Source: Candidatus Poribacteria bacterium
Lineage (GTDB): Bacteria > Poribacteria > WGA-4E > WGA-3G
Assembly: GCA_965220065.1 (NCBI GenBank)
Contig: OZ244804.1
Location: forward strand, 4,554,431-4,618,430
Direction: 5' to 3'
Length of the DNA: 64,000 nucleotides
This document shows positions 1 to 27,245 of the stretch, in pieces; within the stretch, counting starts at the first letter, position 1, and every line of letters starts with the position of its first letter. Under the pieces are notes generated by a model. That model saw only the letters and a program-made list of their open reading frames with translations. It was not told the DNA's origin and did not search any database. The position numbers and the translations under genes are program-made.

Positions 1-2019
1 TACTGGATTATTACCAGAGTTTAACTGTTTCAGTTTTGTCAATCCTGAAAATGGGGAGAAATCAGATATCTGAGTGTTCCAAATAAATACCTCGATAAGA
101 TTTGTCAATCCTGCGAGTGGTGATAGATCCGATAGTGGATTATTTGAAATCCATAACTCTTCCAGATTTATAGCGTGCTCAATGCCCGTCAAATCTTTAA
201 TATCCCTGTTACTTGCTCTTATAATTGTTAATGTTGCCATCTCTTGAAGCGTAATCGGAACAGTCTCCTCTTTCCCAAGTGCGTCTGCGATTACTGCACG
301 CAGGTTCGGGTCGGAAATGTATACACCCGTACCGGGGATCCGCTCTGGACGCTCTTCAGTTGGCAGAAGAACCCTATCAGGGGTATCCAACACAGAAAGC
401 ACTCGGTCAAAATTAGATCTCCACGCATCCCGTTTCATAGTACTATCTTCCAACACCTGCAATCCTAAGTTTTGTAGACTCGCATTTTCACGAACTTTTT
501 CGAGGAACACCTCGGTCTCTAATCCGACAGCGGCAGCAGCGTGCGCCGCATCAAGAGGTCTCTGAAACGCCTCGTAGAACCGTTGAACGGGTTCAATCCC
601 ACCAAAGACACCGCCCGTTGCTTCAAGTGCCTGTCTATAACGGGCAGTATCTTCGCTTACCAAACGATCCATCGTCCCTTGGTTTGTATAGAGTTGCAAC
701 GCTCTGTCTTTATTAAAGGGTGGATTCGCGTTCCGTTGAATAACAGTCCGAACCGTATCTTGAAAATCTTTCATCCCTTCGGTGTGGCATCCAATACAGG
801 ACAATCCATTGCGGACGGTCGGATCACTCGCCGCCGGATTGGAAACGATGTTTATCGGTGCTTCATTAAGGCGATTACCGCTAGCATCTACCAACAGATA
901 TGCCTGCAATCCATTCGGCAAATTAAAGATAATTTCGCCACCGTCATGAGTGAAGGAGAGCGGATGTGTAAAGATGTTCTTTGTCCCAACGCTCCCAGCA
1001 AAGTCGTAACTTTTCCAATACGCGCCATATCGAGAGGTATGACGCTCCACAACACGGTTGTGATTCGACACGCCGGAATCGTTGAAACCTGCACGCCAAA
1101 CGCGTTTGCCTGCCGCATTTCGGAGATTGCTGACGACATCCACATCAAGTTCTGCCTCTAACTCCCGATCGGTTTCAGGAAGATTCAGAATGTCGTGATA
1201 GAGTGGGGGCAATGAGGCAGTCGCAAGAAACCAATCGACATGAACGAATGGCACCTCACAATCCATTGCTTCGCGCAGATTCGTTAATTTTTTATTCAGT
1301 CCTGTCTGTGTTGGGGCGTTGAATTCAATCTCATAAGGATATTCCGCCTCAATCAACGTCCACCGATTGGTTCCAATCTCCCATTCGTAGTCACGGAGGT
1401 CGATATGGAAAATCGTCTCTTCGGGATCAATGGGCTGTGGTTTGATAACCTCGCGTCCCCAAGAAAGACTGTTCACGAGTTTCGAGAGTGCCCGTTGATA
1501 GGCGTGGAGTGCCTCTGCACTTTCACCCGCGTTATAGAGATGTGTGAGTGTAAAATAGCGTGCGAAGGTGCGGTCGAACCGAGAAAGCGAGTTGACATGC
1601 TTCTCAATGGTATCGAGCATCTTCTTGGGCGTGATGAAGGAGATATCTGTCGCAGAGGTGCCTTCCCAACTCGGTGCGCCTGCTTGAATCCAATTACCAA
1701 TCGTCAGAATCGCCGCCGGTGGGAGTTGCGGTTGACCCAACGGCATCCGTTTTGCCGGATCCTTTACAAATAACCGCCTATAGAGTTCAGATTCAATCGG
1801 TTTCCTCGGAACGACTGTGCCTGTTTCGATGAGTGCCGTATGCTCAATGATGATTTCCTCAGTAAACGCCCCATGTTCTCCATGGCAGTTGAGGCAGTTT
1901 TGCTCAAAGATCGCATACGCCTGTTGTGCAAGATTCTGCTGTGCATCAACACTGTGAGAGTTGCCCAGAATGACGGTTAACAGAGAGATGAATGCGATAA
2001 AAATTTTCCAGTTTTTCAT
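1..2019 (-). CDS. N-terminal part of a giant secreted PSCyt-cytochrome / LRR / cohesin-dockerin / T9SS-CTD paralog (copy 1); C-terminal part lies beyond the window start.
   Basis: Reverse complement of 1997..2019 reads ATGAAAAACTGGAAAATTTTT (MKNWKIF), the same N-terminus as the 2661..6686 and 9601..13662 proteins. Plus-strand shadow ORF 541..1161 parallels shadow ORFs 5226..5825 and 12145..12753 of the two full copies at a constant offset. LRR-like sequence runs into position 1. Frame continuity was not verified base by base. Confidence 0.6.
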   Translation of the reverse strand, partial: MKNWKIFIAFISLLTVILGNSHSVDAQQNLAQQAYAIFEQNCLNCHGEHGAFTEEIIIEHTALIETGTVVPRKPIESELYRRLFVKDPAKRMPLGQPQLPPAAILTIGNWIQAGAPSWEGTSATDISFITPKKMLDTIEKHVNSLSRFDRTFARYFTLTHLYNAGESAEALHAYQRALSKLVNSLSWGREVIKPQPIDPEETIFHIDLRDYEWEIGTNRWTLIEAEYPYEIEFNAPTQTGLNKKLTNLREAMDCEVPFVHVDWFLATASLPPLYHDILNLPETDRELEAELDVDVVSNLRNAAGKRVWRAGFNDSGVSNHNRVVERHTSRYGAYWKSYDFAGSVGTKNIFTHPLSFTHDGGEIIFNLPNGLQAYLLVDASGNRLNEAPINIVSNPAASDPTVRNGLSCIGCHTEGMKDFQDTVRTVIQRNANPPFNKDRALQLYTNQGTMDRLVSEDTARYRQALEATGGVFGGIEPVQRFYEAFQRPLDAAHAAAAVGLETEVFLEKVRENASLQNLGLQVLEDSTMKRDAWRSNFDRVLSVLDTPDRVLLPTEERPERIPGTGVYISDPNLRAVIADALGKEETVPITLQEMATLTIIRASNRDIKDLTGIEHAINLEELWISNNPLSDLSPLAGLTNLIEVFIWNTQISDFSPFSGLTKLKQLNSGNNPV

Positions 2020-2660: not shown

Positions 2661-5600
2661 CTATTTTACGATAACCATTCTCCGCGAATACGATAAACCC
2701 TCCGCCTGCAGTTGGTAGAAATAGACACCACTGGCAACGCGCTCACCGACAGCGTTTCTGCCATCCCAATAGGCGGCGCGACTCCGACCTGTATAATAGC
2801 CTTCATGCTGGTGTCCGAGATTCAGTTGGTGGACGATGGTCCCCCGCATGTCATAGATAGTGATTGTCACCTCACTGGGATTTGCCAAATGATACGGTAT
2901 CCATGTCTCTGGGTTGAACGGATTCGGATAGTTCGGGAGTAGTGCTGTCTCTGCAGGAATTAGTGATGCTAAGAGGCGTTGAAGGTTGGCGATACCTTCT
3001 TGGAAGGCAATGGAGCCGTCATCTTCAAGTTGTGCTTGTTTGATCCACGCTTGTATCATCGCAGGGTTCAATTCGTCCATGCTATCCATAGCAAGAATAG
3101 AAGGCGAAGCTGAAGCTGTTGATTTACCCATGTTCTGCGAGACAAGAATGAGATCCAAGATGTTAACAATTCCATCGCCATTTAGGTCAACATCTGAGTT
3201 GGCGGGGACGGTTTTTCCAAGGTGGCGAGCCACAAGCACCATATCCAGAATGCTCACCTGACCATCCCGATTCACATCTCCAGTAACCTGTTTCCCCTTT
3301 ACAGTAATGACGACCTCATGCGGTCCTGCCTCGATCAGTTTGCCGGTAATAGAAGCGAGTTGAAGGTTATCGAGTCGCAATTGCGTTTGTCCAGCAGTTT
3401 TTGCCGTAAATGTTACTGACAACAGAGCACCTGTGCCACTGACCCCGTCTTCGCTGAGCCTTGCTGAACTCAGCCCCTTAATCTTACCCGATCGATTCTC
3501 AATCGTTCCCCTCTGAAAGAAGGTCGCTCCGCCTTGTGTTTTCAGGAAATTGCCTTCGTTGACCTCAACGGCTTCAAGCACAGCGGAGTCATAAGCAATA
3601 TCAAATTGCCATCCCGCTAAATTGTAGATATCCTCTGCCCTAATTTCGAGCGTAAACGTATTCCCGGCATCGATGATAGGTTGGGAAAATACGTATCCGA
3701 CACGCGGGTTTAACACGGTATACTCTGCCTCTGGGTTAAATCCCCAAAAACCGTTACCCGTCGTTGCTGTTGCAACTAACAAGACATTTGCTCCCTCTTT
3801 GAGCGTAACAGGGACGAAATGTTGGTAATCCGATCCGCTTAAACCCCGTTTCTCATGAACCAAAGCACCGTTGAGCCAGGCTTTACCACCGTCGCTATTC
3901 CCTACACACAGCGTCACCTCTTGTTCCCGGGGTGCATACAAAACAACACATCCATAAATAACACCATGCCGAATAGGAGGCATTAACACCTCCTCGCTAA
4001 TTTCACCCCGCCCCGTAGGCGATATTTTGTCGGAATACCAGAGGTTATCTCCAACAGGATTCCCTTCGGTCGCGCCATGGGTTGAAACCTTTACTTCTGT
4101 CACCGAGCCACCACTCGCTTCTGCAAGGTAATCTATTCGACCTTCAGGATTAAAATTTATCCCCGGCAGTAGCACCCATAACCAGGGACCCTCTATTTTA
4201 GGTCCCCCCTGAGGGAAACCCGGATTTTGGTGCCAGATGATTTTTAGATCCTCTCGTAATCCATCTAAAGGCGAAAAGTCAGATATCATATTTTCGCCAA
4301 CGTGCAACCATGTCAACTGCTTTAATTGGGCAAGGGGCGACACGTCCGATATTTCGTTTTTTGGAAGTTCTAACCATTTCAGGTTGGTTAGTTTCGCTAA
4401 GGGCGATATATCCGATATACCATTGCCAGTAAGATCTAAACGCGTTAACCCCATCAATTTCGCCACAGGTGTGACATCCGATACCCTGGAAAAGCGAAGA
4501 TACAGTTGTTTCAAATTTCTTGCCCCCTCCAGGGTTGATACATCAGGCTCCCCCCCACAAATATCTATAGTTTCAAGCCCTACGAGTGGTGATAGATCAG
4601 ATAATGGATTCCCCCAAGAATCAAACCTTTCCAGATTCGATAAACCCACCAAAGGTGAGAGATTCGATATATTGTTATGGCTAACCTTCAGAAGTTGAAG
4701 ATTCTTTAATCCCGTCAGCGGCGATAAGTCACTTATTTCATTGCTACTAATATCTAAGAGATCCAGTTTTGTTAATCCCTCTATAGGGGATATGTCGGAT
4801 ATTTGGTTTCCCTGAATTTCTAACCGTTCCAGATTTGTTGCGAACTCAAGTCCCGCCAAATCGCTGATGTCCTTGTCTGCAGCAGTAAGCCGCTCCAACA
4901 TCATCATCTCTTCCACTGTAATTGGGGTGTTTGGTGTTTTTCCGATTTCTTCTTCAATGACCGCACGCAAATTCGGGTCGGGGATGTAAACAGATGCCCC
5001 AGGGATGCGTTCCGTCTGCGGATCAACTGAAATCACTACATCCGGGAAATCCAACGCAAACACAATTTCACTGAACTTCGATGTCCATGTATCCCTTTTC
5101 ATCGTGCCATTTTCTAAGACTAACACCCCTAAACTCTTCAAATTCGCGGAGGCACGAATCCTCTTCAGAAACGCCTCGGTCTCCAACCCAACGGCGGCAG
5201 CGGCATACGCCGCATCCACCGGTCTTTGAAATGCCTCGTGGAACCGTTGGACGGGTTCAATCCCACCAAACACATCGCCGGTCGCTTTCAGTGCTTGTTT
5301 GTAGCGATCGGTATCCTCCGCGAGGAGTCCCGCCATCGTCACTTTGTCTGTATAGAGTTGCAACGCCCGGTCTTTGTTAAAGGGTGGATTCGGGTTCTTC
5401 TGAACAACGCCACGCACCTGATCTTCAAAATCCTTCATCCCCTCGGTGTGGCAACCGATACAGGAGAGTCCGTTACGGACAGTCGGATCACTTGCAGCCG
5501 GATTGCGAACGATATTTATGGGTGCCTCATCAAGTCGTCTGCCGCCGGCATCCGAGAGATAGTATGCCTGCAAACCGTTGGGCAGGTTGAAGATAACCTC

Positions 5601-6686
5601 GCCGCCATCATGGGTGAAAGAGAGTGGATGTGTAAAGATGTTCTGTGTGCCGACACTCCCGGCGAAGTCGTAACTCTTCCAATACGCACCGTATCGAGAG
5701 GTATGGCGCTCAACGACGCGGTTGTGATTGGATACACCCGAATCGCTGAAACCTGCACGCCAGACGCGCTTTCCTGCTGCATTCCGAAGATTTTCAACAA
5801 CATTTACCTCAAGTCGTTCCTCTAATTCTCGATCGGTTTCTGGAAGGTCTAAGATGTCATGATAAAGTGGCGGCAAGGAGGCGGTCGCAAGAAACCAATC
5901 GACATGAATGAACGGCACCTCACACGCCATCGCTTCGCGTAGATTCCTCAGTTTTTCACGTAGACTCGTTTGTGTGGGTGCGTTGAATTCAATCTCGTAA
6001 GGATATTCCGCCTCAATCAATGTCCACCGATTGGTTCCGATTTCCCATTCGTAATCCCGGAGGTCAATATAAAAGATGGTTTCTTCCGGATCAATAGGCT
6101 TTGGGACGATAACGTTGCGTCCCCAGGAGAGACTGTTCACGAGTTTCGAGAGTGCTCGCTGATAGGCATGGAGTGCTTCCGCACTCTCACCCGCATTATA
6201 GAGATGTGTGAGTGTAAAATAGCGTGCGAAGGTGCGGTCGAACGGAGAAAGGGAGCTGACGTGCTTCTCAATGGTATCAAGCATCTTCTTGGGCGTGATG
6301 AAGGAGCCATCTGTCGCAGAGGTGTCCTCCCAATCCGGTGCCCCTGCTTGAATCCAATTTCCGATGGTTACAATCGCGGCACCGGACAGTCGAGGTTGAC
6401 CCAATGGCATCCGTTTGGCAGGATCATCTACAAGCAACCGCCGATAGAGTTCGGATTCAATCGCGGGTTTCCCCGGAACAACTGCGCCTGTTTCGATGAG
6501 TGCTGTGTGATCAATGATGATTTCTTCAGTAAATGCGCCGTGTTCGCCATGGCAATTAAGACAACTTTGCTCAAAAACCGCATACGTCTGTTGGGCGAGA
6601 TTTTGCTGTGCATTAACAGTGTGAGAGTTGCCCAAAATGAGGGTCAATAGGGAAACGAATGTGATAAAAATTTTCCAGTTTTTCAT
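2661..6686 (-). CDS. Giant secreted multidomain protein (copy 2). Signal peptide, c-type cytochrome domain with CLNCH plus a second CIGCH motif (Planctomycete-cytochrome-like), large uncharacterized domain, internalin-type LRRs, beta-sandwich region, type-I-like cohesin, dockerin pair, T9SS type-A C-terminal sorting domain.
   Basis: N-term MKNWKIFITFVSLLTLILGNSHTVNA. CXXCH motifs CLNCHGEHG and LSCIGCHTEG. LRR repeats ISDLSPLxGLxNL. Cohesin-like WQFDIAYDSAVLEAVEVNEGNF. Dockerin DVNRDGQVSILDMVLVARHLGK...DLNGDGIVNILDLILV. C-term LLPNYPNPFNPETWIPY...IYDMRGTIV...WDGRN..GERVASGVYFYQLQA....MVIVK matches the Por_Secre_tail consensus. RBS caaggaggaaaaacacATG. Confidence 0.8.
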   Translation of the reverse strand: MKNWKIFITFVSLLTLILGNSHTVNAQQNLAQQTYAVFEQSCLNCHGEHGAFTEEIIIDHTALIETGAVVPGKPAIESELYRRLLVDDPAKRMPLGQPRLSGAAIVTIGNWIQAGAPDWEDTSATDGSFITPKKMLDTIEKHVSSLSPFDRTFARYFTLTHLYNAGESAEALHAYQRALSKLVNSLSWGRNVIVPKPIDPEETIFYIDLRDYEWEIGTNRWTLIEAEYPYEIEFNAPTQTSLREKLRNLREAMACEVPFIHVDWFLATASLPPLYHDILDLPETDRELEERLEVNVVENLRNAAGKRVWRAGFSDSGVSNHNRVVERHTSRYGAYWKSYDFAGSVGTQNIFTHPLSFTHDGGEVIFNLPNGLQAYYLSDAGGRRLDEAPINIVRNPAASDPTVRNGLSCIGCHTEGMKDFEDQVRGVVQKNPNPPFNKDRALQLYTDKVTMAGLLAEDTDRYKQALKATGDVFGGIEPVQRFHEAFQRPVDAAYAAAAVGLETEAFLKRIRASANLKSLGVLVLENGTMKRDTWTSKFSEIVFALDFPDVVISVDPQTERIPGASVYIPDPNLRAVIEEEIGKTPNTPITVEEMMMLERLTAADKDISDLAGLEFATNLERLEIQGNQISDISPIEGLTKLDLLDISSNEISDLSPLTGLKNLQLLKVSHNNISNLSPLVGLSNLERFDSWGNPLSDLSPLVGLETIDICGGEPDVSTLEGARNLKQLYLRFSRVSDVTPVAKLMGLTRLDLTGNGISDISPLAKLTNLKWLELPKNEISDVSPLAQLKQLTWLHVGENMISDFSPLDGLREDLKIIWHQNPGFPQGGPKIEGPWLWVLLPGINFNPEGRIDYLAEASGGSVTEVKVSTHGATEGNPVGDNLWYSDKISPTGRGEISEEVLMPPIRHGVIYGCVVLYAPREQEVTLCVGNSDGGKAWLNGALVHEKRGLSGSDYQHFVPVTLKEGANVLLVATATTGNGFWGFNPEAEYTVLNPRVGYVFSQPIIDAGNTFTLEIRAEDIYNLAGWQFDIAYDSAVLEAVEVNEGNFLKTQGGATFFQRGTIENRSGKIKGLSSARLSEDGVSGTGALLSVTFTAKTAGQTQLRLDNLQLASITGKLIEAGPHEVVITVKGKQVTGDVNRDGQVSILDMVLVARHLGKTVPANSDVDLNGDGIVNILDLILVSQNMGKSTASASPSILAMDSMDELNPAMIQAWIKQAQLEDDGSIAFQEGIANLQRLLASLIPAETALLPNYPNPFNPETWIPYHLANPSEVTITIYDMRGTIVHQLNLGHQHEGYYTGRSRAAYWDGRNAVGERVASGVYFYQLQAEGLSYSRRMVIVK

Positions 6687-6839: not shown

Positions 6840-9056
6840 CTATTTCAGATAAATCTCACCGTCTAAATCAGAAAGGGTGTGATTCACACCAGTAACTCCA
6901 CTTGTGACAGCGGATGCCTGCTCCGGTAAACGAATCTTCTGTTGCTTTCCGCTACGGTTGTAGACTGCCCAACCGTTGGTGAACTCACGGATGAATACAC
7001 CCTCGCTGTCGTCGTAAAGTTGACCCTTCGTTTCATCACCTCCGATCGGACGACCCAAGGGAGCGTCATAGAACCGGTAGTAGTATTTGGAGTGGTGATC
7101 AACATTTTCAAGACGGGCATGTCCCTCTAACTGTGCTTCAGTGCGTCCAACGCTAAATAAAACATAACCATCAGAATGTGTGAGAGTGAGGGTGGTAGTA
7201 ACACGCATCATTTGCTTATTGAGTGGAGAATCTAATGGTTCAGTCGGTACTGCGAAAACTTCAAGAGCATTTATTTGAGGTTCGCGCAGGTTTTTCTCTG
7301 ACCATAACAAGGTACTTTCTATTTCTTGGAGTCCAGCATGAGTCAAATAACCATCCTCATTGTCCCACAAACTTCCTATGAAGGCACCATTGATGTACGG
7401 AGCAGAACACCGAGCTTTAGACTGGTTCGTGTTAACAATAATCAGAAAATCGTCGCCAACGGCTTCACGCATACGACGGAGCATAGAAATTCTCGCTTCC
7501 CACTCATCATAGGTATAATTTAGATGAGGATTTGTACTATTTTCGTTCCACCAATTCAGGAACATACCATCATAGATACCACTCTTGGCAATAGCAACGG
7601 CTTGTTGGACGAAATGATTTTGAGCACTGGGATACGTCCAGTCTATGAGAAGTTCACCCCAACCTACGTCTTGAATTCTATCTCCATTTTCATCCCTTAA
7701 CCAATATGGCCAATCCTCTGGATAAACTTCTGGTGGTGCCCCATAATAGTATATTGCCGCAAGCAGTAAATGATTTGGATTTAGTTTCTGTACCTCACTT
7801 CTTTCATTCTGAATATGCTCTCCTTCTGCTACAAGCAACTGAGATCCATCAGGTGTAAAGTGCCACTGGGCACTGCGGAATGACCCTACTACAAACAGAT
7901 CATGATAACTCAACATCTCTTTATGATACGACCATTCCCATATATTATCGGGTCTTGGATAGTTTAGTAGTTGATGATCCCACATTCCAAAAACAGAAGG
8001 ATATGTTCTGTTTTCAACGCGTTCTACGATGCTCGGTCTATCGGACAGTCTAAGTGAATTCTCCGATGTATTGGGGGTTGAGACCTTCTCAGAAACCTGT
8101 AAACCGGCACTATTGCTTTTACTGATGGTCGTAACTTGCCCAATCTGATTTCGCACGGAGGGTTTTGCGTCAGTCTCAAGGACGATAGGGGCATCAATAA
8201 TTTCAACGGTAGGTTCGGATTCAGCCTCGAAGCTGTAAGGTTTTTGAAAATGTGCGAGGTATTGGTTGCTAACACTGAGCATCAATAGGGTTACTAAAAC
8301 CACAGCTGTCCCAAAAGCCGCCCAGGGGAGCAACGGTTTCGTAGCCGAGGGTGGGGTCAGTTTCAGATCAGCGACTTGCTGCATGACGTTCTGGGTTAAA
8401 TTCGCCGATATCTGCACACTGCCCAGAACCTCTTGAACCAAGGCTTCTTCTTTCTCCCGTAAACGTTTACGTGCCCGACTCAGACGACTACTGATCGTCT
8501 TTACGGAAACGCCCAAGAACTTACTAATCTCCTTCATTGTCATTTCGCCGAGATAGAAAAGCGTCATGACGGTGCGTTCACTCTCCGGCAGTTTTTCAAG
8601 AAGTTTTTTCACGACTTCACGCCGGCGTTCCTCGGCTTCTGCCTCGCGGTGCTCCGACAAATAGTGAGTATAGGAGAGTTTTTCTACTTCATCCACGCGT
8701 GTATCCTCCAGCGATTGCATCGTAGATTTTTGTTTTCGCAGCCAATCCAGGCAACGCCGATTCGCCATGACATAGAGCCATCCGGCAAATTGATAGGGAT
8801 CTCTGAGGGTCGGGAGTTTTTTATAGACTTGGAGGAAGGTGTCTTGGGTAATCTCTTCAGCATAGTGAAAATCGCCAATCTTTCGCCATACAAGCGCATG
8901 AACGCTCTTCTGGTACTTGTCGACCAAGATGCTGAACGCTACATCATCACCTGATAAAATTCTCTGTATCAATTGAACATCGTCTTCTCTTTCCATCAGG
9001 ATTCTCCATGATTCATGAATAGATTTCGCAGCTTTGAACGTTCCCTTTTCTGGCAA
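6840..9056 (-). CDS. ECF sigma-70 factor fused in one polypeptide to a transmembrane helix and a large extracytoplasmic glycoside-hydrolase-like (GHL) TIM-barrel-type domain.
   Basis: N-terminal sigma-70 region 2 (HALVWRKIGDFHYAEEITQDTFLQVYKKL) and region 4 (ERTVMTLFYLGEMTMKEISKFLGVSVKTISSRLSRARKRL). Hydrophobic segment LLPWAAFGTAVVLVTLLMLSV. C-terminal approx 430 aa shared with genes 13699, 16242, 19309 and 21678 (YPSVF..YHDLF..NPNLLLL..YPEDWPYWLRD..IDWTYP..AVAIAKSGIYDGMFLNWW..DDFLIIVNT..YINGAF..REPQIN..THSDGYVLF..FIREFTNGWAVYNRSG..DLDGEIYLK). The xDFTHPxVQxxIIQQxxEVAKCGIFDGIxxDxW stretch resembles the active-site region of GHL10/DUF187-type hydrolases (inference). Confidence 0.8.
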   Translation of the reverse strand: MPEKGTFKAAKSIHESWRILMEREDDVQLIQRILSGDDVAFSILVDKYQKSVHALVWRKIGDFHYAEEITQDTFLQVYKKLPTLRDPYQFAGWLYVMANRRCLDWLRKQKSTMQSLEDTRVDEVEKLSYTHYLSEHREAEAEERRREVVKKLLEKLPESERTVMTLFYLGEMTMKEISKFLGVSVKTISSRLSRARKRLREKEEALVQEVLGSVQISANLTQNVMQQVADLKLTPPSATKPLLPWAAFGTAVVLVTLLMLSVSNQYLAHFQKPYSFEAESEPTVEIIDAPIVLETDAKPSVRNQIGQVTTISKSNSAGLQVSEKVSTPNTSENSLRLSDRPSIVERVENRTYPSVFGMWDHQLLNYPRPDNIWEWSYHKEMLSYHDLFVVGSFRSAQWHFTPDGSQLLVAEGEHIQNERSEVQKLNPNHLLLAAIYYYGAPPEVYPEDWPYWLRDENGDRIQDVGWGELLIDWTYPSAQNHFVQQAVAIAKSGIYDGMFLNWWNENSTNPHLNYTYDEWEARISMLRRMREAVGDDFLIIVNTNQSKARCSAPYINGAFIGSLWDNEDGYLTHAGLQEIESTLLWSEKNLREPQINALEVFAVPTEPLDSPLNKQMMRVTTTLTLTHSDGYVLFSVGRTEAQLEGHARLENVDHHSKYYYRFYDAPLGRPIGGDETKGQLYDDSEGVFIREFTNGWAVYNRSGKQQKIRLPEQASAVTSGVTGVNHTLSDLDGEIYLK

Positions 9057-9600: not shown

Positions 9601-12600
9601 CTATTTCCGTATCAGCATCTTCCGCGTTGCCGTGAAATCACCCGCAGTGAGCGTGTAGAAGTAGAGACCACTCGCTACGGACTCACCTATGTCGTTTCTG
9701 CCATCCCAATAGGCGGCGCGACTCCGACCTGTATAATAGCCTTCATGCTGGTGTCCGAGATTCAGTTGGTGGACGATGGTCCCCCGCATGTCATAGATAG
9801 TGATTGTCACCTCACTGGAGTTTGCCAAGTGATACGGTATCCATGTCTCTGGATTGAACGGATTTGGATAGTTCGGAAGCAGTGCTGTCTCTTTTGGAAT
9901 CAACACCACTAAAAGGCTTTGAAGGAAAGCAATACCCTCTCGGAAGGCAATAGAACCGTCATCTTCAATTTGTGCCTGTTCGATCCATGCCTGTATCATC
10001 GCAGGGTTCAATTCGTCCATGCTATTCATAGCAAGAATAGAAGGCGAAGCTGAAGCTGTTGATTCACCCATGTGCTGAGAGACAAGAATGAGATCCAGGA
10101 CATTGATGACTCCATCACCATTTAGGTCAACTTCCGAGTTAGCAGACGCAGTTTTTCCGAAATTCCGAGCAACAAGCACCAAATCCAGAATGCTCACCTG
10201 ACCGTCCCGGTTCACATCTCCAGTCGTGAGTCGTCCCGCTACGGTAATGACGACCTCATGTGATTCTGCAGTGATGGAATTACCGGTAATAGAAGCGAGT
10301 TGAAAGTTATCGAGTCTCAATCGCGTGTGTCCTGCTGATTTTGCTGTAAATGTTACTGACAACAGGGCACCCGTGCCACTGACCCCGGTTTCACTGAGTC
10401 TTGCTGAACTGAGACCTGCAATCTTACCCGACCGATTCTGAATCGTTCCCCTTTGAAAGAAGGTCGCTCCGCCTTGTGTTTTCAGGAAATTCCCTTCGTT
10501 TACCTCAACGGCTTCAAGCATAGTGTGGTCAAAGGCAATATCAAATTGCCATCCCCCTAAATTGTGGATATTTTCTACGTTGAGGTCGAGAGTAAATGTA
10601 TCACCGAGATAGATGAGGGGTTTAGAGAAAGTGTATCCAATACGGGGATCTACGGATACCGAATACTCCGTGCCTTCTTCAAAACTGAAATAACCGCTCC
10701 AACCGCCATCAAATTCATAAACACCCACTAATAAAAAATTTACCCCTTGTTTCAGCGTGACGGGAAAAGCCCTTGGAACCCCGCGGAAAGTGCCATCCAC
10801 TTTCTGTCCATTGAGCCAGGCCTTGCCCACATTATCAGCCTCAGCAAATAAGAATATATCCTGCTCCCGGGGCGAAATCACACGAACTGAACCATAGGCA
10901 ATATGGTTGTTTATATCGCCTTTTCCCAGTCCAGTGGCGTTTGCCATGTCATTCATATTATTATCTGTCGAGGATATTTTGTGAGATTTCCATACACTGC
11001 TTCCAACAAGCGCGCCTTTGGTTGCACCATGGGTCGCAATTTTTAACTCCGTTACCTCACCGCTACTCATCTCTGCAAGAAAATCTGTATCCAGTGACCT
11101 ACCCTCTGTTGGTGTAATTACCCATAACCACGGTCCCTCTATTTTCGGACCTTCCTTTACTGAGGACCCTGGGTTGAATAAGTCAAAAATCTTTGTCGTC
11201 TCAGGCAAGTCATCTAAGGGTGAGAAGTCGGATATATTGTTGTTCTCAAGATCTATCCATTTAAGATTTGTTAACCCGGATAACGGGGATATATCAGATA
11301 TATTGCATTCTCTGAGATTCAGCCATTCGAGGGTGGTTAACCCTGCCAAAGGGGATATATCCGAAAGCCGTCCATTCGCGGCAACACTCAGATGCGTCAA
11401 ATTCGTCAAGTTCGCCAAGGTTGAAAGGTCTGTATCCGACACACCGCAGAAATTTAGATAGAGTTCTTTCAAATTTTTGGCATCCTTCAGCACAGATATA
11501 TCTGGATCTCCACCACATATATCTATATTCCAAAGGTTCGGAAGTTTCATCAGGGGTGATAGGTCAGATAAGAAATTGTTCCAAGACTTAAAATATTCCA
11601 GGTTTTTTAATTCTTCCAGAGGTGAAAGATCGGATATTTTGTTGTTACCTATGTTGATCTTCGCCAAGTTTGTCAATCCTGCCACAGGTGAGAGATCTGA
11701 AACCGAATTATGACCAATATCTAAGGCCCATAAGTTATGTAGTCCAGCAATCGGCGACAGGTCAGAAATGTGCTTGTTACCCTTAAGCCATAGATCTCGC
11801 ATATTTGTTGCAAACTCAAGTCCTGTTAAATCGCGGATGCCTTTGGCATCCGCAAGTGTCTCAAAAGTTTCCAAAGTTGCCATCTCGTCTGCTGTGATCG
11901 TGGCCCCCGGTGCTTTGCCGAGTACTTCTTCAATGACCGCCCGCAGGTTCGGATCAGGAATGTAGACAGATTCTCCAGGGATGCGTTCCGTCCGAGAATC
12001 AACTGACGCTCCACCACTTTTCGATGGGAAATCCAGCGCAAACACGATTTCACTAAACCGATCTGTCCATGTGTCCCGTTTCATTGTGTCGTTCTCTAAC
12101 ACCAATAAGCCTAAATTCTGTAAACTCGCGTTCGCACGAATCTTTTGGAGAAACGTCTCGGTTTCCAAACCGACAGCGGCGGCAGCATACGCCACATCAA
12201 GCGGTCTTTGGAATGCCTCATGGAACCGTTGGACCGGTTCAATCCCACCAAAGACACCCCCCGTTGCTTCAAGTGCCTTCCGATAACGGGCGGTATCCTC
12301 CGCCACAAGCGTATCCATCGTTCCCTTGTCTGTATAGAGTTGCAACGCTCTGTCCTTGTTAAAAGGTGGATTCGCGTTGCGTTGAATAACACCCCGAACC
12401 GTATCTTGAAAATCTTTCATCCCTTCGGTGTGGCATCCAATACAAGACAATCCGTTGCGGACGGTCGGGTCGCTCGCCGCCGGATTGGAAACAATGTTTA
12501 TCGGTGCCGCATCAAGTCGTCTACCGCCGGCATCCGCGAGGTAGTACGCCTGCAAACCGTTGGGCAGGTTGAAGATTATTTCACCCCCATCATGTGTGAA

Positions 12601-13662
12601 AGACAGCGGATGCGTAAAGATGTTCTGTGTCCCGACACTCCCCGCAAAGTCATAACTTTTCCAATACGCCCCGTATCGAGAATCATGACGTTCCACAACG
12701 CGATTGTGATTCGACACACCGGAATCGTTGAAACCCGCACGCCAAACACGTAATCCCGCTGCGTTGCGAATATTTTCGACCACATTCACCTCAAGCCGTG
12801 CCTCTAATTCCCTATCGGTTTCTGGAAGGTCTAAGATGTCATGATAGAGTGGCGGTAAGGAGGCAGTCGCAAGAAACCAATCCACATGAACCAATGGCAC
12901 CTCACAATCCATCGCTTCGCGCAGATTCATTAGTTTTTCACGGAGTGCTGTCTGCGTTGGCGCGTTGAATTCAATCTTGTATGGATATTCCGCCTCAATC
13001 AACGTCCACCGATTGGTTCCGATCTCCCATTCGTAGTTTCGGAGGTCGATATAGAAGATCGTTTCTTTCGGATCAATGGATCGTGGGTTAATAACCTTAC
13101 GCCCCCAAGAGAGACTGTTCACGAGTTTCGAGAGTGCCCGTTGATAGGCGCGGAGTGTCTCAGTCGTCTCACCGGCGTTATAGAGATGTGTCATCGTAAA
13201 ATAGCGGGCGAAGGCACGGTCAAACGGTGCGAGTGAGTTCACATGCTCCTCAATCGTGTCAAGCATCGCCTTGGGTGTAATGAAGGCGGTGTCTCGTTCT
13301 GGCATCTGCCAATCCGGTGCGCCCCTTTGAATCCAATTCCCAATCGTCAGAATTGCGGCGGGAGGCAGTTGGGGTTGACCCAACGGCATCCGTTTTGCCG
13401 GATCGTTTGTGAGGAGTCGCTTATAGAGTTCAGATTCTATCGGTTTCCTCGGAACGACTGTGCCTGTTTCGATGAGTGCCGTATGCTCAATGATGATTTC
13501 CTCAGTAAACGCCCCATGTTCTCCATGGCAGTTGAGGCAGTTTTGCTCAAAGATCGCATACGCCTGTTGTGCAAGATTCTGCTGTGCATCAACACTGTGA
13601 GAGTTGCCCAGAATGAGGGTCAACAGCGAAATAAATATAATAAAAATTTTCCAGTTTTTCAT
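9601..13662 (-). CDS. Giant secreted multidomain protein (copy 3), same architecture as 2661..6686: cytochrome c, LRR, cohesin, dockerin, T9SS CTD.
   Basis: N-term MKNWKIFIIFISLLTLILGNSHSVDA. CLNCHGEHG and CIGCH. LRRs. WQFDIAFDHTMLEAVEVNEGNF cohesin. DVNRDGQVSILDLVLVARNFGK...DLNGDGVINVLDLILV dockerin. LLPNYPNPFNPETWIPY... CTD ending MLIRK. Long stretches nucleotide-identical to copy 2 (e.g. approx 9700-9820 vs approx 2760-2880). Confidence 0.8.
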   Translation of the reverse strand: MKNWKIFIIFISLLTLILGNSHSVDAQQNLAQQAYAIFEQNCLNCHGEHGAFTEEIIIEHTALIETGTVVPRKPIESELYKRLLTNDPAKRMPLGQPQLPPAAILTIGNWIQRGAPDWQMPERDTAFITPKAMLDTIEEHVNSLAPFDRAFARYFTMTHLYNAGETTETLRAYQRALSKLVNSLSWGRKVINPRSIDPKETIFYIDLRNYEWEIGTNRWTLIEAEYPYKIEFNAPTQTALREKLMNLREAMDCEVPLVHVDWFLATASLPPLYHDILDLPETDRELEARLEVNVVENIRNAAGLRVWRAGFNDSGVSNHNRVVERHDSRYGAYWKSYDFAGSVGTQNIFTHPLSFTHDGGEIIFNLPNGLQAYYLADAGGRRLDAAPINIVSNPAASDPTVRNGLSCIGCHTEGMKDFQDTVRGVIQRNANPPFNKDRALQLYTDKGTMDTLVAEDTARYRKALEATGGVFGGIEPVQRFHEAFQRPLDVAYAAAAVGLETETFLQKIRANASLQNLGLLVLENDTMKRDTWTDRFSEIVFALDFPSKSGGASVDSRTERIPGESVYIPDPNLRAVIEEVLGKAPGATITADEMATLETFETLADAKGIRDLTGLEFATNMRDLWLKGNKHISDLSPIAGLHNLWALDIGHNSVSDLSPVAGLTNLAKINIGNNKISDLSPLEELKNLEYFKSWNNFLSDLSPLMKLPNLWNIDICGGDPDISVLKDAKNLKELYLNFCGVSDTDLSTLANLTNLTHLSVAANGRLSDISPLAGLTTLEWLNLRECNISDISPLSGLTNLKWIDLENNNISDFSPLDDLPETTKIFDLFNPGSSVKEGPKIEGPWLWVITPTEGRSLDTDFLAEMSSGEVTELKIATHGATKGALVGSSVWKSHKISSTDNNMNDMANATGLGKGDINNHIAYGSVRVISPREQDIFLFAEADNVGKAWLNGQKVDGTFRGVPRAFPVTLKQGVNFLLVGVYEFDGGWSGYFSFEEGTEYSVSVDPRIGYTFSKPLIYLGDTFTLDLNVENIHNLGGWQFDIAFDHTMLEAVEVNEGNFLKTQGGATFFQRGTIQNRSGKIAGLSSARLSETGVSGTGALLSVTFTAKSAGHTRLRLDNFQLASITGNSITAESHEVVITVAGRLTTGDVNRDGQVSILDLVLVARNFGKTASANSEVDLNGDGVINVLDLILVSQHMGESTASASPSILAMNSMDELNPAMIQAWIEQAQIEDDGSIAFREGIAFLQSLLVVLIPKETALLPNYPNPFNPETWIPYHLANSSEVTITIYDMRGTIVHQLNLGHQHEGYYTGRSRAAYWDGRNDIGESVASGLYFYTLTAGDFTATRKMLIRK

Positions 13663-13698: not shown

Positions 13699-15954
13699 CT
13701 ACTCAAAAGCATTGGCGACGGCGACGAGATCCAGAACATTGACTGTTCCATCGCCATTGACATCTGGGGTATCCTTGCCAAAAGCATTTGCGACAGCAAC
13801 GAGGTCAAGGATATTGACAATCCCATCCGCATTGACATCCGTTGTGGGAGGGGTTTCTAAACCCGATTCCGATTTCAGATAGATTTCACCATCTAAATCA
13901 GGTAGAATGTGCAGGGTGTTGCGTAAACTACTTTCTACACCTGTTGCTTGTTCTATTAGGCGAATAACTTGGGGGGCACCACTGCGGTTATAGACCGCCC
14001 AGCCATTGGTGAACTCTCGGATAAACAACCCCTCTCGGTTCTCATAAAGCTGCGCTTTGGTTTCATCGCCACCAACCGGTTGACCGAGAGGAGCATCATA
14101 GAAGTCGTACCAGTACTTCGTGTTTTGGTGAGTGTGCCGCTTGCCCTGTGCATGAAGATCCGTATGACCTGGCCAAAATTCAAAAGGGTGGGCGGGATGG
14201 TCAAGGGCACCTCCCATGGTAAACATGACATAACCATCGGAATGCGTCAAACTCATCGTCGTCCATAGACGCATCCATTGTAGATTTCTCGAGCTATCCA
14301 GCAGTTCGTTCCTCACGCCCCTGCCTGCTAAACAGTTGATTTGAGGTTCTCGAAGGTTTTCTTCAGCCCACGACAGCGTGCTTTCAATTTCGGAAAGTCT
14401 TGCGTAGGTATAACCGCCCTCATAATCTTCATAAGTTTCCATGAAAACGCCATTGATATATTCCGCATGCCTCGGAATAGTTGTACCAATCGTGTTAGTC
14501 GTCGTTACCAGTATCAAGAAATCCTCACCAACAGCATCACGAATCCCTTGTATGATACGATCCTTTGCGGTATTGGCTTCTTCTACGGTTATATATCCTT
14601 CAAGTGCCTTCGCCCAATGATCTATGGCAATTCCGTCGAAAATCCCACACTTTGCAACTTCAATCGCCTGTTGGATAATCCACTCTTGCGCAGCAGGACG
14701 TGTGAAGTCTATTATATATTCATCCCATGTCGGAATTTCTAATATATTTCCCGATTCATCTCTGAGCCAATATGGCAAATCCTCTGGGTATTCGAGGCGA
14801 GACGCAGCATAGTAATGTATGCCTGTCAGGAGAATCAGATTTGGATTCTGAGCGCGCATCCGATCTATTATTTGCATGGAATCCTCAAGGTTTCCTGTTA
14901 ATTTCCAGCCGTCTGGTGTTGAATTCCAAGCCCACCCGAAACTTACAGCGCAGAAAAACAGATCGTGATATGCTATCCCCTCTTCCCTTGAAAGTTTTGG
15001 GAGGTTCACTATATCCCCACATGCTTGAAAAACCGACGGATGCGCCCTATTTTCAATACGAGGCAGTATAGGGGCTCTCTCTATATCGCAAGTAACTAGA
15101 CGGTGTGTCTTTAGTATCTGAAGGACTTCTGAATCTAATGATATACGTCCCAAAGTTAAGACTTCTATCCCGGCAAGCCCATAAATCGGTGTAAAGTCAA
15201 TGATTTTATTTCTGCTGAGATGCAATTCTTTCAGATTCACCAAGCCTTGTAGCGGTGATATATCTGCTATCTGATTACTTTCAAGTGCCAATCCTTTTAA
15301 GTTGACGAGTCCAGTGAGTGATGAAATATCTTCTATCTGATTTGCTTCAAGTTGCAATTCTTTCAGGTTCACCAAGCCTTGTAGCGGTGATATATCCGTC
15401 AGAAGATTGGCGTTCAGTTCAAGAACCTGTAGTCCCACAAGTCCCGCGAGTGGTGAAATATCTGCTATCTGGTTACGTCCCAATACCAAAACTTCCAGAT
15501 TTATCAAACCTGCAAAGGGCGTTATATCCGAAATTCGATTCTCATACAACTTTAAAACCCGTAAGTTCTCAAGCCCCACGAGCGGTGTTAAATCCGACAC
15601 TTGACTTTTAATAATAGACAAGGATTCTAAGTTCTCAAGTCCCGCAAGTGGCGTTAAATCTGAGACTTCACTTCTGTCAATAACCAAAACTTTAAGATTC
15701 ACGGCATGCTCAAGTCCTTTTAAACTCCTAATATCGGGTTCTATTTTTATTAAGAGAAGATTTTGTAATCTTGCCATGTCGCCAGGGTGTATCGGTATTG
15801 TGTCCGGAACTGCGAGTTCTTCACGGATAGCTTGCTGTAGATTCGGGTCAGGCATCCAGTCTTCTTTGTCTTGGGCGTGTGTGATGTCTCCGAGTGAGGT
15901 AATTAGTAGCAATCCGATCAACATAACTGTAGATATGAATCCATTGATTTTCAT
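13699..15954 (-). CDS. Secreted LRR + GHL-domain protein with C-terminal dockerin pair. True start is the MKINGF signal peptide; the ORF-track extension to 16350 is spurious.
   Basis: MKINGFISTVMLIGLLLITSLGDITHAQ signal peptide, matching the start of gene 19309..21546. Reverse complement of CAT at 15952..15954. LRRs VSDLTPLAGLENL. GHL domain. C-term DVNADGIVNILDLVAVANAFGKDTPDVNGDGTVNVLDLVAVANAFE. Only 36 bp from the upstream gene, so probably co-transcribed. Confidence 0.75.
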   Translation of the reverse strand: MKINGFISTVMLIGLLLITSLGDITHAQDKEDWMPDPNLQQAIREELAVPDTIPIHPGDMARLQNLLLIKIEPDIRSLKGLEHAVNLKVLVIDRSEVSDLTPLAGLENLESLSIIKSQVSDLTPLVGLENLRVLKLYENRISDITPFAGLINLEVLVLGRNQIADISPLAGLVGLQVLELNANLLTDISPLQGLVNLKELQLEANQIEDISSLTGLVNLKGLALESNQIADISPLQGLVNLKELHLSRNKIIDFTPIYGLAGIEVLTLGRISLDSEVLQILKTHRLVTCDIERAPILPRIENRAHPSVFQACGDIVNLPKLSREEGIAYHDLFFCAVSFGWAWNSTPDGWKLTGNLEDSMQIIDRMRAQNPNLILLTGIHYYAASRLEYPEDLPYWLRDESGNILEIPTWDEYIIDFTRPAAQEWIIQQAIEVAKCGIFDGIAIDHWAKALEGYITVEEANTAKDRIIQGIRDAVGEDFLILVTTTNTIGTTIPRHAEYINGVFMETYEDYEGGYTYARLSEIESTLSWAEENLREPQINCLAGRGVRNELLDSSRNLQWMRLWTTMSLTHSDGYVMFTMGGALDHPAHPFEFWPGHTDLHAQGKRHTHQNTKYWYDFYDAPLGQPVGGDETKAQLYENREGLFIREFTNGWAVYNRSGAPQVIRLIEQATGVESSLRNTLHILPDLDGEIYLKSESGLETPPTTDVNADGIVNILDLVAVANAFGKDTPDVNGDGTVNVLDLVAVANAFE

Positions 15955-16241
15955 AAGGCGTATTCTCCTTCTATTAGATAGTAGAAATTGGTTTGTTTTT
16001 CTGGTGTTAGAACTATTTGGGATGGCAACAAGGTCCAAAATGTTGACGCTTTCATCGCTATTGACATCTGCAGGCGATGTGCTTATTTTATAAAAATCTC
16101 GCCGTCTAAATCCGGGATGGTGTGTGATGTGCTGCTGATACGACTCGCAACACCTGTGGCTTGGATCGGCAACTGGATCTGCTATTCTTTGCCGCTGCGA
16201 TTGCAGACCACCCGTCCGAGTTATCATAAGGTCATTTGATA
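15955..16241 (-). pseudogene. Untranslated fossil of a GHL-domain 3' end plus one dockerin repeat, between the T9SS-CTD gene 16242..19211 and gene 13699..15954.
   Basis: Nucleotide homology to the 3' ends of genes 6840.., 13699.. and 21678.. (ttataaaaatctcgccgtctaaatccggg...). Translation gives a remnant like AVYNRSGKE*QIQLP...IPDLDGEIFIK with an internal stop, then FYKISTSPADVNSDESVNILDLVAI (decayed dockerin). Plus-strand ORF 15988..16239 is its shadow. Confidence 0.6.
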
Positions 16242-19308: not shown

Positions 19309-21546
19309 TTAGAAACTATTCGCCACCAGCACAAGGTCTAAGACATTCACCGTGCCATCGCCGTTGACATCTGGGGTATCCTTGCCAAAAGCATTTGCGA
19401 CAGCAACGAGGTCAAGGATATTGACAATCCCATCCGCATTGACATCCGTTGTGGGAGGGGTTTCTAATCCCGATTCCGATTTCAGATAGATTTCACCATC
19501 TAAATCAGGTAGAATGTGCAGGGTGTTACGTAAACCACTTTCTACACCTGTTGCTTGTTCTGGTAGGCGAATAACTTGGGGGGCACCACTCCGATTGTAA
19601 ACCGCCCAACCGTTAGTGAACTCGCGAATGAACAGCCCCTCGCGATTCTCATAAAGCTGCGCTTTGGTTTCGTCGCCACCGATTGGGCGACCCAAAGGCG
19701 CATCCCAAAAATCGTACCAAAGCGTCCTAATATCGGGGTGACCCGAACTCACATTGACATACCCATCTGAATGCGTGAGGCTGAGCGTTGTAAACTGACG
19801 CACCGTGCGTTGGCTTGTTAGAGGTTTATGATCAACTTGACCCCATAAAAGCGTAAAAGTCGGTTCTCGCAAGTTCGATTCATACCACTTTATAATGTTC
19901 TCAAAATGATACAAAGTTTTATGTGTGTAGATTGGTTTTGGACCAGCTTCTATAAAAACACCGTTGATATACGGCGCAGACTGTGGAAGTTCTTCCGTTG
20001 AATTAACCATAATCAAAAAATCATCTGGGACATTCGCCCGGATCCCTTGAAGTATTTGGAGCCTTGCATTCAGTTCATCTTCTTTCGTTACGAGATGGCT
20101 GAGTTCACCCCGAAAATCACCCTCCAACTCCTTCCAGCGATCCAGCCAGATACCATCATATAGTCCACACTTTGCAATCGCAACAGTTTGTTGAATTATT
20201 ATTTCGATAACATCGGGATGTGTAAAATTGAGAAGGGGTTCCGAATACTTGTTACCGAGACGATCTACTTTCCATATACGACGTGCTATTGAACCGTCCT
20301 TATTTCGGAACCAATAAGGCGAGTCTTCAGGAATATTGAAGAAACCCCCATCGAAATATCCAATCGCAACAATAAATATCATATTCGGATTTTCACGGAT
20401 CGCCTCCCTATGGACGTGCGAGAGATGTGCTATCGTTTCACGCGATCCAGTCCGTACCGCACCACCAAATGGAGAATTAAAGGTACGTGGATGAACAAGT
20501 GGATGGAACGGCTCGAACATGAAAGAGAAATCGTAGTGGACCAACTGATTGAATGGATCCGGATCTTCTTCATAGTTGCTCCTTTTATGTGTCAGAAAAA
20601 CAGATGGATAGTCGCGATTCTTAATTCGTTCTGCCACAGTGGCGGTATCGGAAGGTCTTGGGTGTTCACAGATAAAATTTTCTTCTGCTGCCTCAAGATG
20701 CGATGCGTCTATACCTATAAATTGGTTCCCTAATGGAATCGGATTCGGATAGATAACAAGGGTTTTTAAATTCGTTAGACGCACAAGGGGCGTGAAATCT
20801 GAGATGGCGTTATTCTCTAAAATAAGTTCCTGTAGCCCTACCAATTCCGCAAGGGGTGAAACATCTGAAATCTGATCGCCCTGTAGACTTAACACTCTGA
20901 GGTTTTGTAAGTTTACCAGCGGTGTCAAATCCGAGATCAAACTACTCCCTAAACGAAGTTCCTGTAGCCCTATCAATCCCACAAGCGGTGTAATATCTGA
21001 AATCTGATTGTCATGTAATTTCAAGCATTGTAGGTTTACCAACCCAGAAAGGGGTGAAATATCCACAACTTCATTGCTTTTCATTCGTAAGTCTTGTAGC
21101 CCTATCAATCCTGCGAGCGGTGAAATGTCTACAATTTGATTGTTATGTAATTCCAAGCGTTGTAGGTTCACCAACCCAGAAAGGGGTGAAATATCCGTGA
21201 TGCGATTATAATTCAACTTCAAGACCTGTAAATTCTCAAGTCCCGCAAGGGGGGCTAAATCTGAGACTTCACTTCTAATAACAAACAAGCCCCGAAGGTT
21301 CACGGCATGTTCGAGCCCTTTCAAACGCTGAATATCGTGTTCTACTATTAGATGGTTTAATCCCGCCATATCTGTGGGATGTATCGGTATTGTGTCGGGA
21401 ATTCCTAAATTCTCACGGACCGCCCGCTCTAAGTAGGGATCCGGCATCCAGTCTTCTTTGTCTTGGGCGTGTGTGATATCTCCGAGTGTAACTATCAGTA
21501 GCAATCCAGTCAACATAACTGTAGATATGAATCCATTAATTTTCAT
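19309..21546 (-). CDS. Secreted LRR + GHL-domain protein with C-terminal dockerin pair (paralog of 13699..15954).
   Basis: MKINGFISTVMLTGLLLIVTLGDITHAQDKEDWMPDP. LRRs. Divergent GHL domain (LNFTHPDVIEIIIQQTVAIAKCGLYDGIWLDRW). Tail identical to gene 13699..: DVNADGIVNILDLVAVANAFGKDTPDVNGDGTVNVLDLVLVANSF. Confidence 0.75.
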   Translation of the reverse strand: MKINGFISTVMLTGLLLIVTLGDITHAQDKEDWMPDPYLERAVRENLGIPDTIPIHPTDMAGLNHLIVEHDIQRLKGLEHAVNLRGLFVIRSEVSDLAPLAGLENLQVLKLNYNRITDISPLSGLVNLQRLELHNNQIVDISPLAGLIGLQDLRMKSNEVVDISPLSGLVNLQCLKLHDNQISDITPLVGLIGLQELRLGSSLISDLTPLVNLQNLRVLSLQGDQISDVSPLAELVGLQELILENNAISDFTPLVRLTNLKTLVIYPNPIPLGNQFIGIDASHLEAAEENFICEHPRPSDTATVAERIKNRDYPSVFLTHKRSNYEEDPDPFNQLVHYDFSFMFEPFHPLVHPRTFNSPFGGAVRTGSRETIAHLSHVHREAIRENPNMIFIVAIGYFDGGFFNIPEDSPYWFRNKDGSIARRIWKVDRLGNKYSEPLLNFTHPDVIEIIIQQTVAIAKCGLYDGIWLDRWKELEGDFRGELSHLVTKEDELNARLQILQGIRANVPDDFLIMVNSTEELPQSAPYINGVFIEAGPKPIYTHKTLYHFENIIKWYESNLREPTFTLLWGQVDHKPLTSQRTVRQFTTLSLTHSDGYVNVSSGHPDIRTLWYDFWDAPLGRPIGGDETKAQLYENREGLFIREFTNGWAVYNRSGAPQVIRLPEQATGVESGLRNTLHILPDLDGEIYLKSESGLETPPTTDVNADGIVNILDLVAVANAFGKDTPDVNGDGTVNVLDLVLVANSF

Positions 21547-26720: not shown

Positions 26721-26849
26721 AATTTTCCTTTCTTTTCTACTGGAAATTTGTATCGTAAAGCCTACAATTAAGGCATACTTCGTGTGCCTACTACACAACA
26801 GTTGTCTGTAAGAAATCTTTGTATTCTTATCTGTGAAAACATAAGTGTC

Positions 26850-27078
26850 GTAGGTTGGGTTGAACGGAATCTTACTGAAAATCGCATAGAGAAGATAATT
26901 TTCCAGTTCATCAAGAAACCTGAAATCACCAAGGGACAAGTGAAACCCAACGCATTTTCACACCGATAGTGTTGGGTGTTGGGTTTCACTATCTCTATCT
27001 ACAGGGACAATTCATCGAAAATCGGCATTCTCCGTATAAACCGGAGGGTTTTGGTCTTTACCGCTCAACCCAACCTAC
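26850..27078. repeat. MITE-like element copy B, same orientation as copy A.
   Basis: gtaggttgggttgaacggaat at 26850. ccgctcaacccaacctac at 27061..27078. Internal agtgaaacccaacgc ... gttgggtttcact pair. Confidence 0.6.
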
Positions 27079-27095
27079 GGTCACATCTATATTTT

Positions 27096-27215: not shown

Positions 27216-27245
27216 TATATTGTTATTATCAAGCTCAAATCTTTG

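Follow-up and report, generated by a model that had tools for sequence, protein, structure and literature searches.

In the adaptor and anchoring scaffoldins of clostridia (CipA/ScaA and SdbA/OlpB of C. thermocellum, ScaB of A. cellulolyticus) a cohesin and a dockerin are carried in one secreted polypeptide, dockerin-tagged glycoside-hydrolase-like proteins are encoded nearby and dockerins fall into two classes. The scaffoldin-like protein of Candidatus Stygibacter (Cloacimonadota) joins tandem cohesins to a type IX secretion system (T9SS) C-terminal domain, by which Gram-negative surface attachment is predicted, and dockerin-tagged enzymes are encoded in the genome (PMC8542988). From the Poribacteria themselves have come eukaryote-like repeat proteins in which leucine-rich repeats (LRRs) are found with a signal peptide and a Por-type tail; TIGR04183 domains are many in poribacterial repeat proteins and the export route was left open (Kamke et al. 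2014, PMC3909097). Likenesses to all three are found in the protein considered here, the product of a gene at 2661..6686, minus strand, of a 64,000-nucleotide stretch of a Candidatus Poribacteria genome (contig OZ244804.1, positions 4,554,431 to 4,618,430; hereafter the window), where a cohesin, a dockerin and a sorting tail are preceded by LRRs and by a module with two c-type haem motifs. This combination of domains is real, conserved and multi-copy in Poribacteria.

From its N-terminus the product runs through a signal peptide, the module with two CXXCH motifs, LRRs, a beta module, the cohesin, the dockerin, a helical linker and a TIGR04183 tail. The gene and its parts are as follows.

2661..6686, minus strand: whole gene, an intact uninterrupted open reading frame (ORF) for 1341 residues
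6609..6686, minus strand: Sec signal peptide, residues 1-26 (MKNWKIFITFVSLLTLILGNSHTVNA, then putative cleavage before QQ), read from the sequence
5046..6608, minus strand: two-haem module, residues 27-547 (about 520 residues), defined by profile family, AlphaFold2 (AF2) model and invariant residues
6324..6608, minus strand: class I cytochrome c domain (PSCyt1/FoxE-like), residues 27-121
6549-6563, minus strand: CLNCH, residues 42-46, inside the class I cytochrome c domain
5409..5780, minus strand: beta-sheet sub-domain, then the second CXXCH, with a fold resembling cytochrome P460/c'-beta
5448-5462, minus strand: CIGCH, residues 409-413, after the beta-sheet sub-domain
4227..4991, minus strand: internalin-type LRRs, residues 566-820 (LRR_4 at E 3e-28, LRR_8, internalin models)
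3702..4214, minus strand: beta module, probably beta-rich, residues 825-995, kept as a unit in relatives in 1-3 copies
3312..3701, minus strand: cohesin, residues 996-1125 (PF00963)
3117..3290, minus strand: dockerin of the internal, 'scaffold-borne' class, residues 1133-1190 (PF00404)
2937..3101, minus strand: conserved helical linker, residues 1196-1250, in the family always ahead of the sorting domain
2664..2936, minus strand: T9SS type A C-terminal sorting domain, FlgD-Ig-like, residues 1251-1341 (TIGR04183, PF13860)

That a cohesin, a dockerin and a T9SS sorting signal share one polypeptide with two haem-binding motifs was the substance of the original prediction, made from the letters of the window, and in domain hidden Markov model (HMM) scans each of these three domains passes its curated cut-off. 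The cohesin-like segment, which might have failed cohesin models, is matched by PF00963 over residues 1007-1101 at 37.7-39.8 bits (cut-off 24.1), and a profile of the C-terminal half of the family matched solved cohesins in the PDB, 3l8q (5e-9) and 5g5d (1.3e-7), which like 2bm3, also matched by the cohesin profile, belong to adaptor or anchoring scaffoldins. Starting about 10 residues past the cohesin end is a type I dockerin (Dockerin_1, PF00404, residues 1136-1185, 37.8-42.3 bits against 22.9), both of whose calcium-binding F-hand repeats, DVNRDGQVSILD and DLNGDGIVNILD, are canonical and which matched the solved dockerin 2y3n_B at E 3.4e-7 and, by family profile, at 4e-9. At the extreme C-terminus TIGR04183 spans residues 1253-1339 of 1341 (33.9 bits against 23), which together with the Sec signal peptide gives the protein the makeup of T9SS type A cargo; PF13860 (FlgD_ig) reaches 33.1 bits against 27, a better match than that of Por_Secre_tail (PF18962), and relatives appear at NCBI under the name 'T9SS type A sorting domain-containing protein'. 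The helical linker ahead of this tail is about 72% identical in distant members of the family, cohesin-less ones included. At the other end of the protein, CLNCH and CIGCH lie 367 residues apart, close to the approximately 370 predicted; with eight cysteines in all, composition leads one to expect about 0.001 CXXCH motifs, so the two are not there by chance.

In other respects the prediction fell short of what is there or went beyond it. It had passed over the LRR block (approximately 255 residues in about eight repeats, with 22-residue units), the beta module at residues 825-995, for which neither Pfam nor the PDB gave a match even with the family profile, and a third paralog at the window edge. 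'Scaffoldin-like' was an overstatement, as there is usually one cohesin (two in only one of 90 related ORFs) and most of the protein is haem module and LRRs. Cellulosomal scaffoldins have several tandem cohesins, usually with a carbohydrate-binding module (CBM), and because the protein has one cohesin and no CBM model matched it in the domain HMM scans, it falls outside that class, though its action may yet be that of a small adaptor.

The three members of the family in the window stand in tandem, the two companions of 2661..6686 being:

9601..13662, minus strand: paralog B, 1353 residues, same architecture, 71% identical overall
1..2019, minus strand: third paralog, 1416 residues in the source contig, of which the first 673 are in the window, the gene running off its edge

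Identity between paralogs is very uneven by region, 84.5% in the haem module, 77% in the cohesin, 58% in the LRRs and 45% in the beta module, the most divergent. Named homologues are from Candidatus Poribacteria, and a scan of GTDB species representatives gave 78 loci, nearly all of the same origin with three labelled only 'uncultured bacterium'; several genomes are multi-copy, OZ242335.1 for instance having at least seven copies. Of about 75 complete homologous ORFs, drawn from independent genomes of Poribacteria with closed long-read chromosomes among them, 63 keep the whole architecture; the domain combination is under selection.

Most public entries of the family are N- or C-terminal halves of 500-900 residues, some labelled 'partial', and certain of these pair up (P0001/P0272 and P0106/P0310, among others), the members of each pair coming from contigs of identical length (106985 and 15756 for the two pairs named), probably the same contig. 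Such halves probably arise where a short-read assembly or a gene call is interrupted at the LRR repeats, and domain surveys built on split entries would miss the full architecture.

The largest puzzle is at the head of the protein. When the two-haem module was searched as a profile against 1.84 billion cluster representatives (50% identity, threshold E<=1e-30) a family of 1966 was returned. Both CXXCH motifs are present in 130 of the best 150 of these, spaced by 347-401 residues, with most of the other 20 being fragments, and among 71 long ORFs from Poribacteria 69 have the pair. Invariant down to 39% identity (in protein numbering, which is alignment numbering plus 26) are Cys42, Cys45, His46, Met93, Pro94, Cys409, Cys412 and His413, and so too are the polar residues Arg155, Asn184, Asp263, Tyr275, Ser316, Asn322, Arg323, Asp340, Glu363, Asn370 and Arg531. 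The first CXXCH, the distal Met and the fold around them identify a class I cytochrome c of PSCyt1 type, in which Met93-Pro94 is the likely axial ligand of the first haem; the domain resembles FoxE, deposited as a putative iron oxidase. By Pfam the PSCyt1 match (residues 42-94) is marginal at 21.1-23.6 bits against a cut-off of 22, and this cytochrome c part is the whole of what Pfam covers in the module. Against PDB sequences the module as a single sequence had no match, and as a profile it matched in the cytochrome c part only.

The fold of the remainder comes from AF2, which on a shallow alignment of 40 sequences (66% identity or more throughout) reached a predicted local distance difference test (pLDDT) score of 40 and, with relatives of approximately 40% identity added, one of 92.9, with a predicted template modelling (pTM) score of 0.85. 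Five strands in this model (model residues 282-352) lead into a helix bearing the second CXXCH, an order known from P460 and c'-beta proteins, and the sole structural matches of the beta-sheet are in the cytochrome P460/c'-beta family. Since the link is structural, we call the domain P460/c'-beta-like and mean by this a resemblance in modelled structure only: Pfam P460 gave no match at E<=10 in 20 domain sequences, the profile of the beta sub-domain matched no P460 among PDB sequences and Foldseek against the PDB found nothing below E 0.5, so that membership of the family by sequence is rejected. To the solved P460 and c'-beta structures (8brk, 6hiu, 7s5o, 6amg, 2je3) the domain has no detectable sequence similarity; unlike them it sits within a far larger module of helices and has a class I cytochrome c as its partner, and the Lys cross-link and five-coordination of that family are candidate features only. 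The worry that the motifs might lie in a non-cytochrome fold has nonetheless receded, the first being within a class I cytochrome c fold and the second following a sheet of P460/c'-beta appearance. A candidate of another kind, fatty acid cis/trans isomerase (CTI, PF06934), was rejected, its match being limited to profile positions 75-153 of 692 at 13-15 bits against 25; these approximately 80 weakly matching positions adjoin the cytochrome domain and are seen in nine of 60 relatives, with a best E of 1.6e-4.

Distant carriers of the module, at approximately 40% identity, are Planctomycetota (Gemmataceae, Pirellulales). Among them are proteins named 'c-type cytochrome domain-containing' that have the same module of approximately 520 residues, CXXCH motifs about 360 residues apart and the same invariant residues, but other downstream partners, with cohesin, dockerin and sorting tail in none of the 120 relatives listed. 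What follows the module in relatives is usually a set of protein-interaction repeats (tetratricopeptide repeats (TPR), WD40, LRR), and FGE-sulfatase domains are fused to it in 11 of 60 sampled. Judged by these sequences the module is a widespread, general one of planctomycete type, periplasmic or extracytoplasmic and habitually joined to protein-interaction domains, rather than a scaffold-specific invention. In the relatives P0204 and P0250, presumably planctomycete, it makes up the part of a membrane-spanning Ser/Thr kinase that lies outside the cytoplasm, the order in P0250 (kinase, membrane helix, module) placing the module outside the membrane; those relatives of the P0250 module that bear a taxon name are Planctomycetota.

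The genes from 1 to 24.4 kb of the window are all on the minus strand and have modules in common, while the remainder is ordinary metabolism. Apart from the three paralogs they include:

13699..15954, minus strand: LRR-GHL15 protein with signal peptide (true start MKING...) and compact C-terminal dockerin, a candidate ligand of the cohesin
19309..21546, minus strand: second LRR-GHL15 protein with signal peptide and compact C-terminal dockerin
16242..19211, minus strand: LRR-GHL15-YWTD/LDL-B propeller protein that shares its C-terminal sorting domain with the product of 2661..6686
6840..8996, minus strand: sigma factor of the extracytoplasmic function (ECF) type, one membrane helix and an extracytoplasmic GHL15
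21678..24425, minus strand: ECF sigma factor, membrane helix, LRR and GHL15

Two dockerin classes are kept across Poribacteria genomes (loci L001, L003, L004, L006, L007). One is longer and internal, is followed by the linker and sorting tail and occurs on the haem-LRR-cohesin proteins; the other is compact and C-terminal, occurs only on GHL15 proteins (in the window at 13699..13850 and 19309..19450, minus strand) and has the consensus DVNxDGxVNILDLVxVANAFGKDxPDVNGDGxVNVLDLVxVANAF. Such a division suggests two binding specificities.

In the sigma-I/RsgI systems of C. thermocellum alternative sigma factors are tied across the membrane to extracellular domains related to the cargo under their presumed control, the sensor being a CBM or glycoside hydrolase domain on a separate anti-sigma factor. 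The sigma fusions of the window likewise carry cargo-related outer domains, their (LRR-)GHL15 parts being 46-63% identical to the neighbouring dockerin- and sorting-tail-bearing proteins (63% for the outer part of the 21678..24425 product against the dockerin-bearing 13699..15954 protein), but here an ECF-type sigma factor and an LRR-GHL15 sensor are joined in a single polypeptide. They have the look of a sigma/anti-sigma pair drawn into one chain, sensing the ligand of the cargo itself. Scaffold, GHL15 and sigma genes are found linked in 13 of the 78 loci, all of them closer relatives.

Between the stop of 16242..19211 and the start at 15954, at about 16015..16128 on the minus strand, is a decayed GHL15 end with a dockerin-like fragment (DFYKISTSPADVNSDESVNILDLVAI), probably the relic of a dockerin-coding segment lost as the upstream gene gained its propeller and sorting tail. 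Just past the cluster, at 25189..29669 and 34541..35506, are genes for several xylose-isomerase-like TIM-barrel proteins as well as for a UxuA-like dehydratase and a pectate-lyase-like protein, which fit the carbohydrate-scavenging lifestyle reported for Poribacteria.

How might such a protein work? The reading that we prefer, and to which we would give a probability of about 0.5, is that Candidatus Poribacteria have an expanded family of modular envelope proteins to which it belongs, with the following mechanism. The protein would be exported by Sec, both haems would be attached in the periplasm by a cytochrome c maturation system, and the C-terminal domain would carry the folded protein to the outer face of the outer membrane and anchor it there with the haem head distal. 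Its cohesin would capture dockerin-tagged partners, most plausibly the neighbouring LRR-GHL15 proteins, whereas its own dockerin, probably unable to fold back on the cohesin since only about 10 residues intervene, would bind in trans to the cohesin of a paralog to give small oligomers or chains; that chains or lattices are in fact assembled in this way is speculation. The LRR and beta modules, the fastest-diverging between paralogs, probably bind sponge-matrix or host ligands. The haem head would be a small-molecule-reactive redox unit in which a His/Met electron-transfer haem feeds a ligand-binding or catalytic haem, nitric oxide (NO), hydroxylamine, peroxide and O2 being candidate substrates. 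Catalysis on small oxidants or nitrogen species seems somewhat more likely than pure sensing because of the dense invariant polar residues and the FGE-sulfatase fusions, with the kinase fusions keeping sensing in play. One can go further and envisage a self-assembling cohesin-dockerin coat with outward-facing two-haem catalytic heads, in which an electron-transfer haem would feed a reactive haem of P460/c'-beta-like kind, exported by a T9SS-like route of which this phylum has no described case and regulated by single-chain sigma factors with sensors that mimic the cargo, the whole being a surface redox array for detoxifying or sensing NO, hydroxylamine or peroxide of host or nitrifier origin; we consider this extension improbable.

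Several observations weigh against the reading of an envelope protein that works in this way. There is a single cohesin per protein, with either dockerin class as its candidate partner. Distant paralogs are not beside GHL15 or dockerin genes, which confines the linkage to the 13 loci mentioned. For the predicted second haem, nearly invariant His276, His328 and Tyr275 could serve as sixth ligand. Export is the most delicate point: it is the sorting domain that points to T9SS, no T9SS component was found among the window ORFs scanned (over the 64 kb, with a lower limit of 150 residues beyond 24 kb, all but three), the literature searched contained nothing relevant on T9SS in Poribacteria and poribacterial single-cell genomes were found to have no Por/T9SS structural genes (Kamke et al. 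2014, PMC3909097).

A serious rival, unlikely though we judge it, thus has the protein in the periplasm or on the inner face of the outer membrane, the TIGR04183-like tail being a beta-sandwich anchor or interaction domain rather than a signal for T9SS, the haem head a periplasmic module of an ordinary redox or sensory kind, and cohesin, dockerin and LRRs the means of building a periplasmic complex. The abundance of TIGR04183 domains in genomes apparently devoid of Por structural genes suits it well, as do the closer likeness of the tail to FlgD_ig than to Por_Secre_tail and the periplasmic setting of the same haem module in planctomycete TPR, WD40 and kinase fusions. Yet the genomes of the 2014 study are incomplete single-cell assemblies, TIGR04183 scores above its cut-off and, as in true cargo, the tail is at the extreme C-terminus past a conserved linker, to which may be added the NCBI label of the relatives. 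Cohesin-dockerin systems and internalin-type LRRs are, moreover, typically extracellular.

About as doubtful is the proposal that the haem head is mainly a sensor, with the ligand or redox state of the second haem gating LRR, cohesin or dockerin contacts, so that surface assembly or adhesion would follow conditions in the sponge mesohyl, whether of oxygen, NO or redox. In its relatives the module is found as the extracytoplasmic domain of membrane-spanning Ser/Thr kinases and nearly always upstream of protein-interaction repeats, and some cytochromes c'-beta, members of the fold that it resembles, are gas-binding haem proteins. This protein, however, has no output domain; a catalytic site is closer to what its many invariant polar residues and paired electron-transfer haem suggest, and the 11 FGE-sulfatase fusions point to an enzyme context. 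That the protein forms a conductive surface lattice for extracellular electron transfer is very improbable. Its c-type haem motifs may be brought to the surface, the protein that carries them may associate with itself, and the cytochrome c domain has the FoxE resemblance noted above, but there are only two such motifs in 1341 residues and, because more than 400 residues of LRR and beta module intervene between them and the cohesin and dockerin, the distance between haems of neighbouring molecules would be far too long for hopping; there are no multihaem partner proteins in the 64-kb window and the literature searched links no T9SS to extracellular electron transfer. Finally, the notion that the combination is an artefact, with the long ORF produced by chimeric assembly or by the fusing of neighbouring genes, for which the many same-contig half-length entries might be cited, can be rejected with near certainty, the window ORF being uninterrupted, its identical 1341-residue product being found on two ENA contigs that belong to the same assembly (5.39 Mb in one case) and the 63 complete ORFs from independent genomes having the same domain order with no N run in any of them.

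What would it mean if the preferred reading, that of a modular envelope protein at the cell surface, is correct and cohesin and dockerins bind as predicted? There would then be a non-cellulolytic cohesin-dockerin assembly, with covalent haem at the surface, in a Gram-negative animal symbiont, which would widen the range of known cohesin-dockerin uses and give something concrete with which to approach surface building in the dominant sponge symbionts and their dealings with host chemistry. The question posed in 2014, of how Poribacteria export their many TIGR04183-tailed proteins, is reopened. The two-haem module, which forms about 2000 clusters (50% identity, E<=1e-30) across Poribacteria and Planctomycetota, offers useful starting points in a confident model and a fold lead; it is in this unexplored module and in the export route that most of the value lies.

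Returning to the known systems, the literature searched contained no report of cohesins or dockerins in Poribacteria or of a cytochrome as T9SS cargo, nor any description of the combination, in keeping with the suspicion voiced at the outset that it was not among characterised proteins. The poribacterial repeat proteins come from the same phylum, and the LDL-receptor class B repeats of a neighbouring gene are a further likeness to them; since the words cohesin, dockerin and cytochrome occur zero times each in the main text of that study, a haem module with a cohesin-dockerin pair is not described there (PMC3909097). The Stygibacter protein, which like ours is known by genome inference only, differs in having many cohesins and CBM2/CBM3, and in being without haem, LRR or a dockerin of its own (PMC8542988). 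Clostridial scaffoldins, the Cloacimonadota scaffoldin and the poribacterial LRR proteins are not known to carry haem, nor to consist mainly of a two-haem module and LRRs. To our knowledge no characterised scaffoldin carries these two parts together. Beside the clostridial scaffoldins, to which it is alike in its cohesin, dockerin and dockerin-tagged neighbours, the protein of 2661..6686 has one cohesin, no recognised CBM and a TIGR04183 tail in place of an S-layer homology (SLH) domain or sortase signal; it comes from a Gram-negative sponge symbiont, its cohesin-dockerin binding is a prediction, and more than half of it is given over to the two-haem module and LRRs.

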